From a bacterium (GTDB lineage: Bacteria > Chlamydiota > Chlamydiia > Chlamydiales > SM23-39), in assembly GCA_021780355.1 (NCBI GenBank), contig JAJXYX010000097.1, positions 1,594 through 65,593 on the forward strand: DNA of 64,000 nt, in the 5' to 3' direction. Within the stretch, counting starts at the first letter, position 1. Each line of letters starts with the position of its first letter. The notes beneath the pieces are model-generated. The model was not told where the DNA came from and ran no database searches. It was given only the letters and a program-made list of their open reading frames with translations. The translations under genes and the position numbers were made by a program. Shown one piece after another: positions 4,222-54,702 of the stretch.

Positions 4222-4360
4222 GTAAGCGTTCAGGCAATGCTGTCAACTTAAGGTCTCCGCCCCATAGGCCTCAACCTATCAAAAATTTGCGATAAATTTT
4301 TGATAGGTTGAGGTCTATGGGGCGGAGACCTTAAGTTGACACCATGGCTTGAACGCTTAC
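4222..4360. repeat. 139-bp near-perfect palindrome (singleton in this window)
   Basis: Left arm GTAAGCGTTCAGGCAATGCTGTCAACTTAAGGTCTCCGCCCCATAGGCCTCAACCTATCAAAAATTTGC. The right arm is its reverse complement with a few mismatches (…TTGATAGGTTGAGGTCTATGGGGCGGAGACCTTAAGTTGACACCATGGCTTGAACGCTTAC). It lies between two convergent genes, 10 nt after the sedolisin stop. Confidence 0.9.
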
Positions 4361-4587: not shown

Positions 4588-4659
4588 TATACCGTTCGTG
4601 ACTCAAGAATCGGCTATTGGACGGCTTCAAAGCCGATTCTTGAGTCAGGAATGGGTATA
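4588..4659. repeat. Family-1 palindromic element (TATACC...GGTATA), internally deleted 72-bp copy
   Basis: TATACCGTTCGTGACTCAAGAATCGGCTATTGGACGGCTTCAAAGCCGATTCTTGAGTCAGGAATGGGTATA. GACTCAAGAATCGGCT pairs with AGCCGATTCTTGAGTC. The termini match those of the copies at 10331 and 21372. Confidence 0.9.
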
Positions 4660-4846
4660 TATAGAAAGTTTTTTTCTCTCTCATGCATCGCTTCGAAGAT
4701 TTTTTCACATTGCTTCAAGGAGATATTTTTTGCAACTTGAACTGTATGCAATATATCTTTAATGTGTATACCAAACAAAGCTGAAGAATCGGCTTATAGA
4801 CAGGTCCTTCAGCTTTCTTCGATATATCGACAACAATGAGAGGCTT

Positions 4847-16012: not shown

Positions 16013-16408
16013 ATGAGCGATTGGGAAAATTTTCTATTTTTGTTAGGTCGAGTGCTGATTGGGGTTTTTTTTCTTTGGAAAGCTTCAGAAAAAATTCGGC
16101 ATTGGAATGAAGCTGCGAGCATTTTAAAGAAGAAAAAAGTGCCTTATATCTCTTACGTTTTGCCTCTTTCAACGGCTATACAACTTGTGGGCGGTTTGTC
16201 GATCGTTTTAGGGTTATACACTGACATTGGAGCGACTTTCTTAGCTCTTCATATGATCGCTCATATGTACAAAGTGCATAATTTCTGGAATATGAACCAG
16301 GGCCAGGAGAGAAATTTTGAAAAGCTCTCTTTTATGAAAGATCTAGCCATTCTCGGTGAACTTTTTATCTTCATCGTGATCGGCAGCGGACCGTTTAGCA
16401 TCTACTAA
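16013..16408 (+). CDS. DoxX-family membrane protein
   Basis: 131 aa with four predicted TM helices. The N-terminal LLGRVLIGVFFLWKASEKI is typical of DoxX. Confidence 0.65.
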   Translation: MSDWENFLFLLGRVLIGVFFLWKASEKIRHWNEAASILKKKKVPYISYVLPLSTAIQLVGGLSIVLGLYTDIGATFLALHMIAHMYKVHNFWNMNQGQERNFEKLSFMKDLAILGELFIFIVIGSGPFSIY

Positions 16409-16418
16409 CCAAAATTCC

Positions 16419-16544
16419 TCAAAGGGCTCGCGCCCTTTGATGTCCCTTCTTATTTTTGTGTTTTTCCAAAAGAAAAATCAAAAATGGTTTCTTCGAAAGA
16501 AGAACTCCAAAAAATAGAAGGGATTTCAAAGGGCGCGAGCTCGT
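16419..16544. repeat. Palindromic element related to family 2 (126 bp)
   Basis: The left arm TCAAAGGGCTCGCGCCCTTTGATGTCCCTTCTTATTTTTG pairs with the right arm AAAAAATAGAAGGGATTTCAAAGGGCGCGAGCTCG. The left end carries an hp2-like local hairpin, CAAAGGGC-TCGC-GCCCTTTG. It starts 11 nt after the doxX stop. Confidence 0.8.
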
Positions 16545-16552
16545 TTTACTTT

Positions 16553-16865
16553 GGGGGGCTTCGCCCGAAACCCCATTAAGGGACTGTCTCTCCTTATACC
16601 CAACGTGATTCAAAATTTGGCCGCTAGACGGGTTCAAAGCGCAAAAAATCGATTGTTACAAAAGGGGATTGTATTGATTTAATACTACCCCCCTTTGTAA
16701 CAATCGATTTTTGGCAGCTTTCAATCCCGCCTAGCGGCCAAATTTTGAATCACGTTGGGTATAAAACCCCGTTTTCTTTTTTTTTCTATATTTAATAAAA
16801 AACCCAAGGATCAAGGGGTTTTAAGGGGCGATAGCCCCTTAATGGGGTCCGGGGCGAAGCCCCGG
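16553..16865. repeat. Family-2 element (subtype a) interrupted by a family-1 element
   Basis: The left arm GGGGGGCTTCGCCCGAAACCCCATTAAGGGACTGTCTCTCCT (16553-16594) and the right arm ...GGGGTTTTAAGGGGCGATAGCCCCTTAATGGGGTCCGGGGCGAAGCCCC (ending at 16865) are complementary. They are separated by the complete element at 16595-16763. Confidence 0.85.
16595..16763. mobile_element. Family-1 palindromic element, full-length subtype-2 copy (169 bp), nested inside a family-2 element
   Basis: TATACCCAACGTGATTCAAAATTTGGCCGCTAGACGGG-TTCAAAGCGCAAAAAATCGATTGTTACAAAAGGGG-ATTGTATTGATTTAATACTA-CCCCCCTTTGTAACAATCGATTTTTGGCAGCTTTCAATCCCG-CCTAGCGGCCAAATTTTGAATCACGTTGGGTATA. The nesting indicates past mobility. 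There is no coding capacity, so it is non-autonomous. Confidence 0.8.
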
Positions 16866-16883
16866 ATTTGAGGAGATGAAAAA

Positions 16884-18107
16884 TTATCTCTTAGGTTTGT
16901 TGAAGTGTGATCTTTTGGGACGGAATGAGGGTTTTCGCTTAGGACGCGGGAAGGATTTTTTTTCTTGGATTTGAGGTTCCATGCCTTGGATGACGTGGAA
17001 GCTGAGAGATTGTCCTGTGAACTGTTCAATCCGTTTAACGAGGTGGCGATCTTTGGGGGCGGCGAATGAGAGGGCGGTTCCTGTCGCGCCGGCTCTTCCT
17101 GTACGGCCGATGCGGTGGACGTAGTCTTCTGGGCTCATGGGGAGGTCGAAATTGATCACGTGAGTGATGGTTTGCACGTCGATGCCGCGGGCGGCCACGT
17201 CGGTGGCGACGAGGATGCGGATCTCGGATCGGCGCAGGCGCGTGAGGGTTCTCGTCCTTTGACGCTGGTTCATGTCTCCATGAAGCGCCGCTGCTTTGTG
17301 TCCTTGATCGACGAGCTTGTCGGTTAGCTGATCGGCTTGATGTTTGGTCGCAGTGAAAATGATCGTTTGATAGACCGTCTCATCGGATAAAAAGTGATCT
17401 AGCAGCTGGTATTTATGGTTAATGTTATCGACCTTATGGACCCTTTGGTCGATTTGCTCATGCTTTTCATGGGCATGGGCAACGCTGATCTCGAGAGGAT
17501 TTTTCAATAAATTTTTGGATAAATTGATGACGCTGCCTTTGAGGGTAGCTGAGAAGAGGAGCGTCTGTCTTGAAGCGGGGAGGGCCGCCGCAATTTCTTG
17601 AACAGGCTCGATAAAGCCCATATCGAGCATCCGATCCGCTTCGTCGAGGATGAAGAGTTCAACTCCAGAGAGATCGATCCGTCCCCGTTCTAATTGGTCG
17701 ATCAGCCTTCCTGGCGTCGCGACAAGAATTTCATAGGGGCGGGAGAGGTCTCTATTTTGGACGCCGTAGGGGATGCCTCCATAAATGCAAACAGTCTTTG
17801 TTTTAGAGAGATATTTACTATATTTGGCTGCTTCCACTGCAATCTGCATGGCTAATTCGCGGGTTGGCGTCAGAACCAATACACGTGGGCCTCGGGTCTT
17901 TTTGGCAGCAGGAGTCATGAGTTTATGCAGGGCGGGAAGGATGAACGCCGCTGTTTTTCCCGTGCCTGTTTGAGCGGAAGCTCTTAGATCGCAGCCTTTT
18001 AAAATGCTGGGAATCGCTTCTTTTTGAATCGGAGTGGGGGTGGTGTGTCCCATCTCTTCGATCGCTTTCAAGATGAGGGGGTGTAAAGATAATTCTGTAA
18101 ACGCCAT
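16884..18107 (-). CDS. DEAD-box ATP-dependent RNA helicase
   Basis: 407 aa. Q-motif region, AQTGTGKT (motif I), PTRELA, ILDEADRMLDMGF (DEAD), LFSATL (SAT), HRIGRTGRAG (motif VI), and a basic C-terminal tail RPKRKPSFRPKRSHFNKPKR. Confidence 0.9.
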   Translation of the reverse strand: MAFTELSLHPLILKAIEEMGHTTPTPIQKEAIPSILKGCDLRASAQTGTGKTAAFILPALHKLMTPAAKKTRGPRVLVLTPTRELAMQIAVEAAKYSKYLSKTKTVCIYGGIPYGVQNRDLSRPYEILVATPGRLIDQLERGRIDLSGVELFILDEADRMLDMGFIEPVQEIAAALPASRQTLLFSATLKGSVINLSKNLLKNPLEISVAHAHEKHEQIDQRVHKVDNINHKYQLLDHFLSDETVYQTIIFTATKHQADQLTDKLVDQGHKAAALHGDMNQRQRTRTLTRLRRSEIRILVATDVAARGIDVQTITHVINFDLPMSPEDYVHRIGRTGRAGATGTALSFAAPKDRHLVKRIEQFTGQSLSFHVIQGMEPQIQEKKSFPRPKRKPSFRPKRSHFNKPKR

Positions 18108-21371: not shown

Positions 21372-21405
21372 TATACCGTTCGTGACTCAAGAATCGGCTA
21401 TTGGA
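21372..21405. repeat. Family-1 element, solo terminal arm (34 bp)
   Basis: TATACCGTTCGTGACTCAAGAATCGGCTATTGGA. Read on the minus strand, it encodes the last five residues (PIADS) and the TGA stop of the M16 peptidase. Confidence 0.85.
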
Positions 21406-24391: not shown

Positions 24392-24472
24392 TATACCTAA
24401 CGTGATGCAAAATTTAGCCGCTAGGCGGGATTGAAAGCGCCAAAAATCGATTCTTGAGTCACGAACGGTATA
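24392..24472. repeat. Family-1 element, chimeric 81-bp copy (subtype-2 end plus subtype-1 end)
   Basis: TATACCTAACGTGATGCAAAATTTAGCCGCTAGGCGGGATTGAAAGCGCCAAAAATCGA joined directly to TTCTTGAGTCACGAACGGTATA. The left end matches the arms at 16595-16763 and the right end matches the arms at 4588/10331/21372. Confidence 0.85.
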
Positions 24473-27076: not shown

Positions 27077-27250
27077 TATATAGTGCTTCCGGTTGAAAGG
27101 CACCCAATCTTTTCGTTTTTAACAGTTCAATTTTCCAGCTATTTTGGCAGGGTTACTATTCGAAGATCATAGGACCCTGCCAAAATAGTTGGAAAATTGA
27201 ACTGTTAAAAACGAAAAGATTGGGTGCCTTTCAACCAGAAGCGCTATATA
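27077..27250. repeat. 174-bp near-perfect palindrome flanked by TATATA (singleton)
   Basis: TATATAGTGCTTCCGGTTGAAAGGCACCCAATCTTTTCGTTTTTAACAGTTCAATTTTCCAGCTATTTTGGCAGGGT...ACCCTGCCAAAATAGTTGGAAAATTGAACTGTTAAAAACGAAAAGATTGGGTGCCTTTCAACCAGAAGCGCTATATA. Confidence 0.9.
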
Positions 27251-27329
27251 CTACCCCCTTTTATGACAATCGATTTTTGGCAGCTTTCAATCCCGTCCAA
27301 CAGCCGATTCTTGAGTTACGAACGGTATA
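27247..27329. repeat. Family-1 element, right half only (83 bp), abutting the 174-bp palindrome
   Basis: ATACTACCCCCTTTTATGACAATCGATTTTTGGCAGCTTTCAATCCCGTCCAACAGCCGATTCTTGAGTTACGAACGGTATA. The apical loop end and inner segment resemble 16595-16763, with a subtype-1 outer arm. Confidence 0.8.
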
Positions 27330-27451
27330 AAGGCTTTGAATGCGGTCCTTTCGGCGCCTTTCAGGCGGAGCGCATGGATTTTGTCGCATATAAATCTTTT
27401 TTGTATTAGGATTTTCCTTTCGCGTAAAACATAACATATAAGGAGGTATCT

Positions 27452-28753: not shown

Positions 28754-28819
28754 GTAGATCCTCTTTCTAATATTTCCAAGTTTCCCATGCAGGGCCTGTG
28801 CCCTGCATCAAAAAAAATA

Positions 28820-28867
28820 GGATTCCAAAGGACGATAGTCCAATGGTTAGGTTTGGGGCAAAGCCCC
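28820..28867. repeat. Family-2 element, single arm (subtype a)
   Basis: GGATTCCAAAGGACGATAGTCCAATGGTTAGGTTTGGGGCAAAGCCCC in the nrdA-nrdB spacer, ending 2 nt before the nrdA stop codon. Confidence 0.75.
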
Positions 28868-28869
28868 AA

Positions 28870-32235: not shown

Positions 32236-32363
32236 TTGTGGGTTTCTGGTCTAGAAAAAAAAACCGCGATTGCATACCCACTTACACAGAGTCGTTAAGG
32301 GTAGCAAAAATCATCAAAACATGCGATTTTTTTGTCGCGAATGAAGTTTGTGCGCTCTCCATC

Positions 32364-32488
32364 TTGGGGCTTCGCCCCAAACCCCATTAAAGGACTGTCG
32401 TCCTTTAAAATCCCGTTTTTTTTATATAAAATCAAAAAGGATTTTAAAGGACGATAGTCCTTTAATGGGGGGTGGGGCGAAGCCCCAA
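32364..32488. repeat. Family-2 composite-hairpin element, complete subtype-a copy (125 bp)
   Basis: TTGGGGCTTCGCCCCAAACCCCATTAAAGGACTGTCGTCCTTTAAAATCC-CGTTTTTTTTATATAAAATCAAAAA-GGATTTTAAAGGACGATAGTCCTTTAATGGGGGGTGGGGCGAAGCCCCAA. Confidence 0.9.
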
Positions 32489-32565
32489 CATGAAATGATG
32501 AGGTATTTCTAGGCGTTGCGAATTTTAGCTTGGGATGCGGGAGGGTTTGTGTTATTATGGGGATT

Positions 32566-43220: not shown

Positions 43221-43350
43221 TAAGGGCTTCGCCCTTAAGAACCCACCAAAGGGCTGTCGCCCTTTGGAATCCCCTTTGATTTTATATAAAAAACAATAGG
43301 AGTCCAGAGGACGAAGTCCTTTGGTGGGTTGTTAAGGGCGAAGCCCTTAA
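43221..43350. repeat. Family-2 composite-hairpin element, complete subtype-b copy (130 bp)
   Basis: TAAGGGCTTCGCCCTTAAGAACCCACCAAAGGGCTGTCGCCCTTTGGAATCCC-CTTTGATTTTATATAAAAAACAATA-GGAGTCCAGAGGACGAAGTCCTTTGGTGGGTTGTTAAGGGCGAAGCCCTTAA, in the divergent lptF / tilS spacer. Confidence 0.9.
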
Positions 43351-50154: not shown

Positions 50155-50460
50155 TTGGGGCCCTGCCCCAAACCCCGCCAAAGGACTTCGTCCTTTGGAA
50201 TCCTGAGTTTGTTGAGGGATTATAGCACGATGGGATTTTCTTGACTGTTAGTTTATGCAAGACTTCGTCTTGTATAAACTAAAAAAATAAGCAGATTTCA
50301 AAGAACTTCGCCTTGAAATTCTGAATTTGTTAAGGGATCATGGCATGAGGGGATTTTCTTAACTATTAGTTTATGCAAGACTCCGTCTTGCATAAACTAA
50401 AAAAAACAAATAGGATTCCAAAGGACGAAGTCCTTTGGCGGGGCATGGGGCAGCGCCCCA
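50155..50460. repeat. Family-2 element (subtype c), expanded copy with 2 x 120-bp internal tandem duplication
   Basis: The arms are TTGGGGCCCTGCCCCAAACCCCGCCAAAGGACTTCGTCCTTTGG and CCAAAGGACGAAGTCCTTTGGCGGGGCATGGGGCAGCGCCCC. Internal units start at 50179, 50299 and 50419 (CAAAGGAC / CAAAGAAC / CAAAGGAC), giving a 120-bp period. Each unit carries GGGATTTTCTT(G/A)ACT(G/A)TTAGTTTATGCAAGAC-TYCG-TCTTG(T/C)ATAAACTAAAAAAA. Confidence 0.85.
50219..50227 (-). promoter_or_regulatory. Extended -10 box (TGCTATAAT) inside the expanded repeat, facing aspS
   Basis: The minus strand reads CGTGCTATAATCCC. No good -35 is present. A transcript from here would start about 85-90 nt upstream of the aspS ATG. The second repeat unit has a degenerate version (TGCCATGAT). 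Confidence 0.3.
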
Positions 50461-54560: not shown

Positions 54561-54702
54561 CCAAATGAAGGGCTCCGCCCTTAGACCCGCCAAAGGGCTG
54601 TCGCCCTCTGGACTCCCATTTGTTTTTATATAGATAAATAAAAGGGGTTCCAAGGGGACTTTGTCCCCTTGGCGGGTCGAAGGGCGGAGCCCTTCATTTG
54701 GG
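54561..54702. repeat. Family-2 composite-hairpin element, complete subtype-c copy (142 bp)
   Basis: CCAAATGAAGGGCTCCGCCCTTAGACCCGCCAAAGGGCTGTCGCCCTCTGGACTCCC-ATTTGTTTTTATATAGATAAATAAAA-GGGGTTCCAAGGGGACTTTGTCCCCTTGGCGGGTCGAAGGGCGGAGCCCTTCATTTGG. Confidence 0.9.

Follow-up and report, generated by a model that had tools for sequence, protein, structure and literature searches.

The closest described analogue of the repeats treated here is the RUP/IS630-Spn1 pair of Streptococcus pneumoniae. RUP is a small non-coding element with IS630-like terminal inverted repeats, which inserts at TA and is often located within other mobile or repeated elements. Both RUP and IS630-Spn1 duplicate the TA on insertion (PMC2229807). 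A comparable arrangement is described here for the window, which is the whole 64,000-nucleotide stretch of DNA analysed, with a GC content of 45%; it comes from an uncultured bacterium of the phylum Chlamydiae. The spacer between its convergent doxX and DEAD-box helicase genes contains a palindromic unit of a family referred to as family 2, which is split by a second palindrome, referred to as family 1. Family 1 is best read as an IS630-dependent miniature inverted-repeat transposable element (MITE), integrated at a TA at the foot of the second hairpin (hairpin 2) of a family-2 arm. With high probability, the spacer as a whole is a stack of mobile palindromes that arrived one after the other, the last of them being a 165-bp MITE of subfamily 1a, derived from or related to IS630 and nested in family 2.

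The features common to this locus and the RUP/IS630-Spn1 system are the IS630-like ends, the duplication of TA and the landing of one element in another repeat. In contrast, family 1 is unrelated to RUP in sequence and its host belongs to a different phylum, the Chlamydiae. It is also longer, at 165 bp against the 107 bp of RUP, and has much longer inverted repeats (~36 nt). It forms a near-perfect palindrome over its full length, and it landed in a palindromic repeat rather than in an insertion sequence (IS).

The Correia/NEMIS elements of Neisseria and the ERIC/IRU elements of enterobacteria are 100-170 bp in length, possess TA termini, duplicate their target and give rise to transcripts with long stem-loops. 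They are intergenic and often lie between convergent genes (PMC2229807). Family 1 has the TA ends and the hairpin layout in common with these elements, a likeness by description, with no match to an Rfam family. No transposase partner has been established for Correia, whereas a candidate IS630 partner of family 1 is present on the same contig. When set beside the Correia consensus, as it is presumed to read, only the TATA start seems to be common to both. The comparison of filled and empty sites is the standard proof of insertion for elements of the Correia/ERIC type and is likewise used here.

A MITE lying within another serves as a marker of relative age in plants and cyanobacteria. The nested case in the window is clean but ordinary; TA-targeting MITEs derived from IS630 and nested age markers are textbook transposon biology. 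A limited search of the literature on MITEs in Chlamydiae returned nothing relevant, which is weak evidence of absence.

Nesting of Family 1 Within Family 2

The family-2 unit occupies positions 16555-16863 of the window and is split by family 1 at 16595-16763. The two arms of the unit, at 16555-16601 and 16817-16863, measure 47 nt each, with 81% complementarity. Both flanks of the insert resemble the intact family-2 copy at 32360-32492. The left flank is 90% identical to this copy over 32366-32405 (E 3e-5), and the identity between the right flank and the matching arm is 82-84% (E 4.5e-6).

Three reconstructions of the site prior to insertion were compared: one in which a single TA is kept (-167 bp), one in which 169 bp are removed without any duplication, and one with a TATA duplication. 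The deletion of 16597-16763, corresponding to the 165-bp element and one TA, restores a family-2 unit of 146 bp. Hairpin 2 is re-formed in this unit (TTAAGG...CCTTAA; TTAAGGGACTGTCTCTCCTTAA), and AAAACCCC is placed opposite GGGGTTTT of the right arm as a perfect extension of the arm pairing (CCTTAAAACCCC / GGGGTTTTAAGG). The restored unit aligns to three intact copies over both arms and folds into one continuous hairpin (-46.8 kcal/mol, z = -8.2). The other two reconstructions do not restore the palindrome, are contradicted by the uninterrupted site of a relative (below), and were rejected. The filled site reads CCT-TA-[165 bp]-TA-AAACCCC, and a TA target duplication emerges both from the comparison of the filled and empty sites and from the TA present at both ends of family-1 copies at ~15 sites.

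A preliminary description of this DNA had interpreted the segments on either side of family 1 as the two arms of a single family-2 unit, and the alignment of both arms with the three intact copies bears this out. The same description held that removal of family 1 leaves a unit of the usual size. Layout and size are as predicted, but the length given, 144 bp, was 2 bp short of the 146 bp found. Its coordinates otherwise all agree within 2 nt.

It is barely conceivable that families 1 and 2 are not independent and that the 313-bp segment is a composite repeat always configured in this way. Such a repeat would suit the other palindromic stacks or junctions in the genome (27077-27331, 34571-34783 and L088 15546-15842; L numbers are handles of loci and assemblies). 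However, each family also occurs alone. Intact family-2 copies at 32360, 43221 and 54561 contain no family 1. Conversely, family 1 lacks family-2 flanks at 10331-10496, 4588-4660, 24392-24472, 21372-21405 and 27251-27331, as well as in L005, L007, L008 and L088, and the orthologous site in the relative L093 is without the insert.

A metagenome assembly artefact across multi-copy repeats would also produce a nested arrangement, and three assemblies (L002, L003 and L006) do end inside the family-1a element, while L005 switches locus there. This explanation is nonetheless extremely improbable. The left junction, from family-2 arm to family 1, is identical in L001, L002 and L003, and the right junction, from family 1 to the family-2 side, is identical in L004, L005 and L006, these six assemblies stemming from four samples. 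The window sequence is also present in the metagenome-assembled genomes (MAGs) GCA_027457305.1 and GCA_027351235.1 and on the ENA contig ERZ27236866:k141_620252, which crosses the entire family-1 element and is identical to the window.

The switch in L005 (11345-11512) takes place on contig DAIEEB010000001.1 of the MAG GCA_027457305.1, which passes inside family 1a to an unrelated locus, through either misassembly or true recombination between two family-1a copies. Repeats of this kind break or misjoin metagenome assemblies, and at least this one public contig is affected.

The Empty Site and the Order of Arrival

A search with DoxX identified three close relatives. One of these, L093 (ENA ERZ1066136), encodes a DoxX with 93% amino acid identity, and its doxX gene is 85.6% identical at the nucleotide level. 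In L093, an orthologue of f6, the palindromic unit next to doxX, is followed by GGGGCTTCGCCCCAAACCCCATTAAGGGACCGCGCCTCTTAAAACCCCTTTTTCTTTTTATATTT, in which the family-2 left arm leads directly to the AT-rich centre; one TA is present and family 1 is absent. The empty site consists of GGGGCTTCGCCCCAAACCCCATTAAGGGACCGCGCCTCTTA joined directly to AAACCCCTTTTTC (CTCTTA/AAACCCC) within the uninterrupted arm ...CTCTTAAAACCCC.... The reconstructed window and L093 are collinear from the doxX stop codon to the AT-rich centre and 87% identical up to the TA. Past the AT-rich centre, L093 continues into a different gene, encoding a helix-turn-helix (HTH) protein, and the right arm is missing. The preliminary description had anticipated an uninterrupted state in a relative, and L093 provides it, if not for the whole unit then for the arm into which family 1 inserted.

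By this comparison, the ancestor shared by the window organism and L093 already had family 2, and family 1 is confined to the window lineage. Family-1a copies at separate loci are 96-97% identical (a second copy is seen in L005, and the L007 copy is on an unrelated contig), whereas the identity of the flanks between the window organism and L093 is ~87%. It follows that family 1 was the later arrival of the two. The empty site, together with this contrast in identity, upholds the original claim that family 1 moved when family 2 was already in place.

If family 1 were ancestral and had been precisely excised in the L093 lineage, the empty site would be silent on the order of arrival. Cut-and-paste elements can excise, and precise excision leaves a single TA. 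This history is very unlikely because the family-1a copies retain their identity across loci, even on a contig of 35% GC, against 75-80% among family-2 copies and 87% for the flanks of the window and L093. Family 2 must moreover predate the element inside it, whatever the history of excision.

Structure and Copies of the Family-1 Element

The family-1 element at 16595-16763 is 169 bp in length, with terminal arms of 39 nt that are 97% complementary. As single-stranded DNA it folds into a single hairpin (-74 kcal/mol, z = -18.6). The 165-bp body has no coding capacity, bar a spurious 72-aa open reading frame (ORF) which crosses it. Further copies are found in the window at 10331, 4588, 24392, 21372 and 27251, and beyond it in L005, L088, L007, L008 and L094. 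All copies start with TATAC and end with GTATA, and the base before the TA is mostly T across ~30 element ends.

When seven full-length copies from subfamilies 1a and 1b are compared, base pairing is preserved at 96% of the paired positions. Compensatory changes are present in 23/69 pairs, where shuffled sequences yield 14.8 +/- 1.8 and slid controls 1-5. Several independent compensations also fall in the inner stem, to which nothing in the IS corresponds. Part of the compensation reflects the two transposase-binding ends, which co-vary between the subfamilies. Selection on the hairpin, or homogenisation of the arms via hairpin-templated repair, is a possible cause.

At both gathering and permissive thresholds, Rfam gave nothing above threshold, and the sub-threshold matches were generic long-hairpin (microRNA precursor) models. 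A scan for the family-1 terminus gave no match in the contigs of representative genomes, among which the species is not included. The same scan of metagenome contigs recovered one locus, L007.

The copy in L007 (5216-5384) is of subfamily 1a and 96% identical, and it is carried by an unrelated metagenome contig, within a glycosyltransferase island of 35% GC. The low GC content was considered as a sign of a different host and is inconclusive, since L007 is a glycosyltransferase island. In L008 (5802-5879), an 81-bp element with family-1a termini lies upstream of a helicase gene in another Chlamydiae species. Horizontal spread of family 1 is possible in view of these two loci.

Two family-1b sequences extend into coding regions. 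At 10331-10344, family 1b contributes the last codons and the stop codon of an AAT-domain gene ending at 10344, and at 21372-21405 it does so for an M16 peptidase gene ending at 21387. As family 1b supplies the stop codons of two genes, MITE insertions have remodelled gene 3' ends.

The Candidate IS630 Partner and the Proposed Mechanism

An IS of the IS630 family is located on the same contig as the window. Its transposase is intact, with 347 aa and HTH_23/29/33 and DDE_3 domains, and scores 214 bits against NF033545 of NCBIfam (cut-off 100) and 1e-34 for DDE_3. The ends of the IS, TATACCCAAGTAATCTCAAAAGTTGGTCGC and TACACCCTTCGTGAATCAAAATTTTG, each match the family-1a terminus TATACCCAACGTGATTCAAAATTTGGCCGC at 22/30 positions and are the two best matches to that terminus in the 21-kb locus on both strands. 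The IS is mobile: copies from other samples (L097-L100), with an identical or 98% identical transposase, are found at different sites and are bounded by TATACCC...GGGTATA. The transposase has thousands of close relatives, one of them annotated as a Chlamydiales IS630 transposase. Many occur on contigs of ~1121 bp, as is usual for an IS present in many copies. The IS630/MITE pair has apparently been active recently in environmental Chlamydiae.

The 81-bp element at 24392-24472, which has almost no interior, mirrors the IS, one end of which is similar to 1a and the other to 1b; this element may have arisen from the IS directly by deletion.

IS630-family elements insert at TA and duplicate it, and cut-and-paste chemistry is established for IS630/Tc1-mariner elements. 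By analogy, family 1 probably moves by the same chemistry. The mechanism proposed has the IS630 DDE transposase act in trans: it would bind the ~36-nt terminal inverted repeats, excise family 1 and integrate it at a TA dinucleotide by staggered cleavage. Repair of the staggered cut would duplicate the TA. The target was the TA in ...CCT-TA-AAACCCC..., which lies in the left arm of a family-2 palindrome already in place, at the inner foot of its hairpin 2, and this older unit was split by the insertion. Co-occurrence on one contig and the shared termini suggest that the nearby IS630 transposase is the enzyme which mobilises family 1 in trans.

A different mode of movement has a small chance of being correct, namely one dependent on hairpins or single strands, as for elements derived from IS200/IS605 or the REPINs driven by RAYT. 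Family 1 might likewise be kept as a structured RNA, the likeness to IS630 being secondary in either case. The palindrome spans the whole element and not the termini alone, and the pairing and compensation across the seven copies include the inner stem, which is not derived from the IS. Against this, each copy is flanked by TA, and the filled and empty sites together give a TA duplication, whereas elements of the IS200/IS605 type possess no terminal inverted repeats and produce no target duplications. The termini also match those of an IS630-family IS with the same TATACCC/GGGTATA ends, and there is no Rfam match to favour a structured RNA. Dependence on IS630 is the preferred account of family 1.

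Weight of the Evidence

Several points weigh against the interpretation of the spacer as a stack completed by an IS630-related MITE. No allele was found with both family-2 arms and no insert. Homology with L093 is lost past the AT-rich centre, and L101, another of the relatives, has only the outer right arm, fused to f6. The TA duplication is formally indistinguishable from a terminal TA belonging to the element itself. The ends of the nearby IS are only ~73% identical to the family-1a termini, and the true mobilising copy may be another member of the abundant IS630 group. The inner hairpin of the MITE has no match in the nearby IS and does not come from it. The portion of the genome inspected amounts to only ~100 kb.

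The first of these points also bears on the nature of the interrupted unit. The flanks might be two independent family-2 half-units, inverted around family 1 or joined by recombination, in which case no insertion into a complete unit took place. Half-units and single arms do exist (28807-28869, 34571-34800, L088 15782-15842 and L090 13960-14007), a complete uninterrupted unit is seen in no relative, and the outer right arm is found in L101 without the left arm. Even so, this is improbable. The insert splits the left arm itself: in L093, AAAACCCC and the AT-rich centre, which in the window lie to the right of the insert, directly adjoin the left arm. Excision of the insert gives a unit of normal size and layout, with unbroken pairing between the arms. 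Even under a separate history of the right arm, family 1 would still have inserted into family-2 sequence. Insertion of family 1 into a complete family-2 unit is the reading followed below.

Layout of the Spacer

The coordinates of the features are collected in the table. Three elements, f6 (16419-16545), family 2 (16555-16863) and family 1 (16595-16763), make up 436 of the 475 bp of the spacer (92%), in agreement with its earlier portrayal as almost wholly stacked repeats. The chance expectation of the family-1 and family-2 motifs was 0 matches in 100 shuffles. A scan of the spacer for promoter and terminator consensus sequences gave nothing exceeding the shuffled expectation; a terminator role of the repeats is therefore unsupported. 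No tRNA genes were found, and a BLAST of the spacer against plasmid and phage collections returned no match.

Table. Features of the doxX/helicase spacer and related elements. Positions are those of the window unless preceded by another locus.
Feature	Position	Strand	Basis or remark
doxX	16013-16408	+	ORF and Pfam
doxX/helicase intergenic spacer, 475 bp	16409-16883		between convergent genes
f6, 127-bp palindromic unit: one GC-rich hairpin per arm (TCAAAGGGCTCGCGCCCTTTGA), AT-rich centre	16419-16545		arms 38 nt, 84% complementary
Family-2 left arm, outer part: hairpin 1 (GGGGCTTCGCCC), linker AAACCCC, hairpin 2 up to target TA	16555-16596		90% identity to 32366-32405
Left copy of duplicated target TA	16595-16596		single TA in L093; palindrome restored only with one TA
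Family-1a MITE body, 165 bp	16597-16761		terminal arms, fold, IS630-like termini, other copies 96-97% identical
Family-1a terminal inverted repeats	16597-16632 and 16726-16761		around inner hairpin
Family-1a inner hairpin	16641-16715		arm and fold analysis
Right copy of duplicated target TA	16762-16763		single TA in L093; palindrome restored only with one TA
Remainder of left arm (AAACCCC) and AT-rich centre	16764-16816		contiguous with left arm in L093; pairs with GGGGTTTT after excision
Family-2 right arm: hairpin 2', linker, hairpin 1' (GGGGCGAAGCCCC)	16817-16863		complementarity and alignment to intact copies
DEAD-box helicase gene	16884-18107	-	ORF and Pfam
Intact family-2 copy, 133 bp, nearest relative of the interrupted unit	32360-32492		alignment
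Intact family-2 copy, 129 bp	43221-43349		alignment
Intact family-2 copy, 141 bp	54561-54701		alignment
Full-length family-1b MITE without family-2 flanks	10331-10496		between convergent genes
Internally deleted family-1 element, 81 bp, 1a-type left end and 1b-type right end	24392-24472		sequence comparison
IS630-family insertion sequence, 1121 bp	L088 13280-14400		same contig, 1.4-2.5 kb upstream of window position 1

Family 2 and f6

Each family-2 arm contains a GC-rich hairpin 1 (e.g. GGGGCTTCGCCCC), a short linker and a hairpin 2 (e.g. TTAAAGGACTGTCGTCCTTTAA), and an AT-rich centre lies between the arms. The hairpin stems vary between copies yet remain complementary. Members of the family are found between convergent, divergent and tandem genes. 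In the interrupted unit, the outer half of the right arm is orthologous to the sequence directly downstream of the helicase gene in L101.

REP and REPIN sequences are defined by the tags GTAG and CGTC (PMC3733652). Family 2 is similar to REP, REPIN and BIME repeats in that an inverted pair of short GC-rich hairpin modules surrounds a spacer, and in the occurrence of both singlets and doublets. Stems which vary while staying complementary, and the absence of an obvious target duplication, are further resemblances to REPINs. Unlike REPINs, however, family 2 lacks GTAG/CTAC in 11/11 copies or arms, contains CGTC/GACG only within the hairpin-2 loop of some copies, and has two hairpins and a linker per arm. 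No RAYT gene was present among the ~100 kb inspected and no Y1_Tnp in the Pfam calls of L001, L004, L005, L088 and L090. The identification of family 2 as a REPIN was rejected because the GTAG/CGTC tag is missing, and its membership in REP/REPIN is not supported. The copies have no TA ends, and their flanks reveal no consistent target duplication. No match to family 2 was found in Rfam or in the plasmid and phage collections.

The f6 unit is a one-hairpin relative of family 2. Orthologues are located downstream of doxX in L093, L092 and L101, and its presence in three lineages marks f6 as the older unit. Its position has been retained across ~15-18% nucleotide divergence of doxX, and a T-run follows it in three lineages. 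From its sequence and position, f6 could act as a terminator of doxX.

A second nested case is located at 34571-34800, where a family-2 left half carries a palindrome of ~166 bp (~34607-34772) in the loop of hairpin 2. The inner hairpin of this palindrome is like the family-1 core, its termini are different, and no target duplication can be defined. An ORF lying upstream (33412-34605) continues across the family-2 arm as far as a TAG at the junction, where it ends. At 50156-50460, a family-2 unit with arms of 49 nt that are 94% complementary surrounds 207 bp, the interior consisting of two tandem units of ~120 bp, 82% identical and each with a hairpin (TTAGTTTATGCAAGAC...GTCTTGTATAAACTAA).

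A broader reading, in which the palindromic repeats are structure-selected modules and not passive junk, is doubtful but deserves mention. In its favour, family 1 retains its hairpin pairing over the full length through many compensatory changes, those of the inner stem included, and this stem is common to f1a, f1b, the variant in L094 and the 34607-34772 element, despite their different termini. Family 2 and f6 would form a previously undescribed hairpin-of-hairpins family, and as TA, target duplication and REP tag are all lacking, an undescribed way of moving would be implied for it. The stack would also mark a recurrent synteny breakpoint, with four relatives having four different sequences downstream of doxX. 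If this were true, the repeats would be recombination hotspots or terminators shaping gene order in environmental Chlamydiae. The stepwise arrival of mobile palindromes, which is the preferred account, is followed across relatives in the next section.

Growth of the Spacer and Gene Order Among Relatives

In a more distant set of relatives, L102 (helicase identity 85%) and L103-L106 (84%), the synteny is otherwise identical, and doxX and the helicase gene overlap, giving a spacer of -17 bp with no content. As the genes overlap by 17 bp in these relatives, the spacer of the window consists entirely of acquired DNA. In L101 and a JGI 28-kb contig (helicase identity 92%), the spacer measures 206 bp, and in the L101 lineage a hybrid hairpin joins f6 to the family-2 outer right arm. 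The insertion of family-2 material in the window lineage, or its loss in L101 by recombination of two similar hairpins, would both fit this state. The window has the full 475 bp with f6, family 2 and family 1. Together, these states form a time-ordered sequence record of an intergenic region that went from overlapping genes to 475 bp purely via successive insertions of mobile repeats. The closest representative genomes are Chlamydiae MAGs with a helicase identity of merely 60-68% and no doxX synteny, and they are uninformative on the spacer.

The sequence downstream of doxX is different in each of four relatives: L092 has an unknown gene there, L093 an HTH gene, L101 the helicase gene via the hybrid hairpin, and L094 another family-1-like MITE. 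Each difference starts inside or beside a repeat, and the stack therefore looks like a rearrangement hotspot. In L094, an additional element end (TACCG...) is nested at a TA in the right terminal repeat of the first MITE.

The gene on the other side of doxX (13490-15835, minus strand) encodes a protein of 781 aa with two tandem D-Ala-D-Ala ligase modules (Dala_Dala_lig_N/C twice). This double-ligase gene is kept next to doxX in all relatives examined.

Further Palindromic Elements

Another palindromic family, with ends of the type TATATAGTGCTTCCGGTTGAAAGG..., is represented by a 174-bp element at 27077-27250, which forms part of the stack at 27077-27331. Its members repeatedly adjoin family-1b elements or form hybrids with them, at 27077-27331, L005 18353-18554, and L088 11944-12013 and 12797-12875, and the junctions share a TA(TA). 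This suggests that TA-flanked elements attract one another. A 1b element also adjoins a family-2 right half at its TATATA centre in L088 (15617-15842).

Two further intergenic palindromes were recorded elsewhere in the window. The element at 4222-4360 (139 bp) has arms that are 94% complementary. The 91-bp element at 11622-11712 is a short relative of family 2, with hairpin-1 and linker sequence in common with the copy at 43221.

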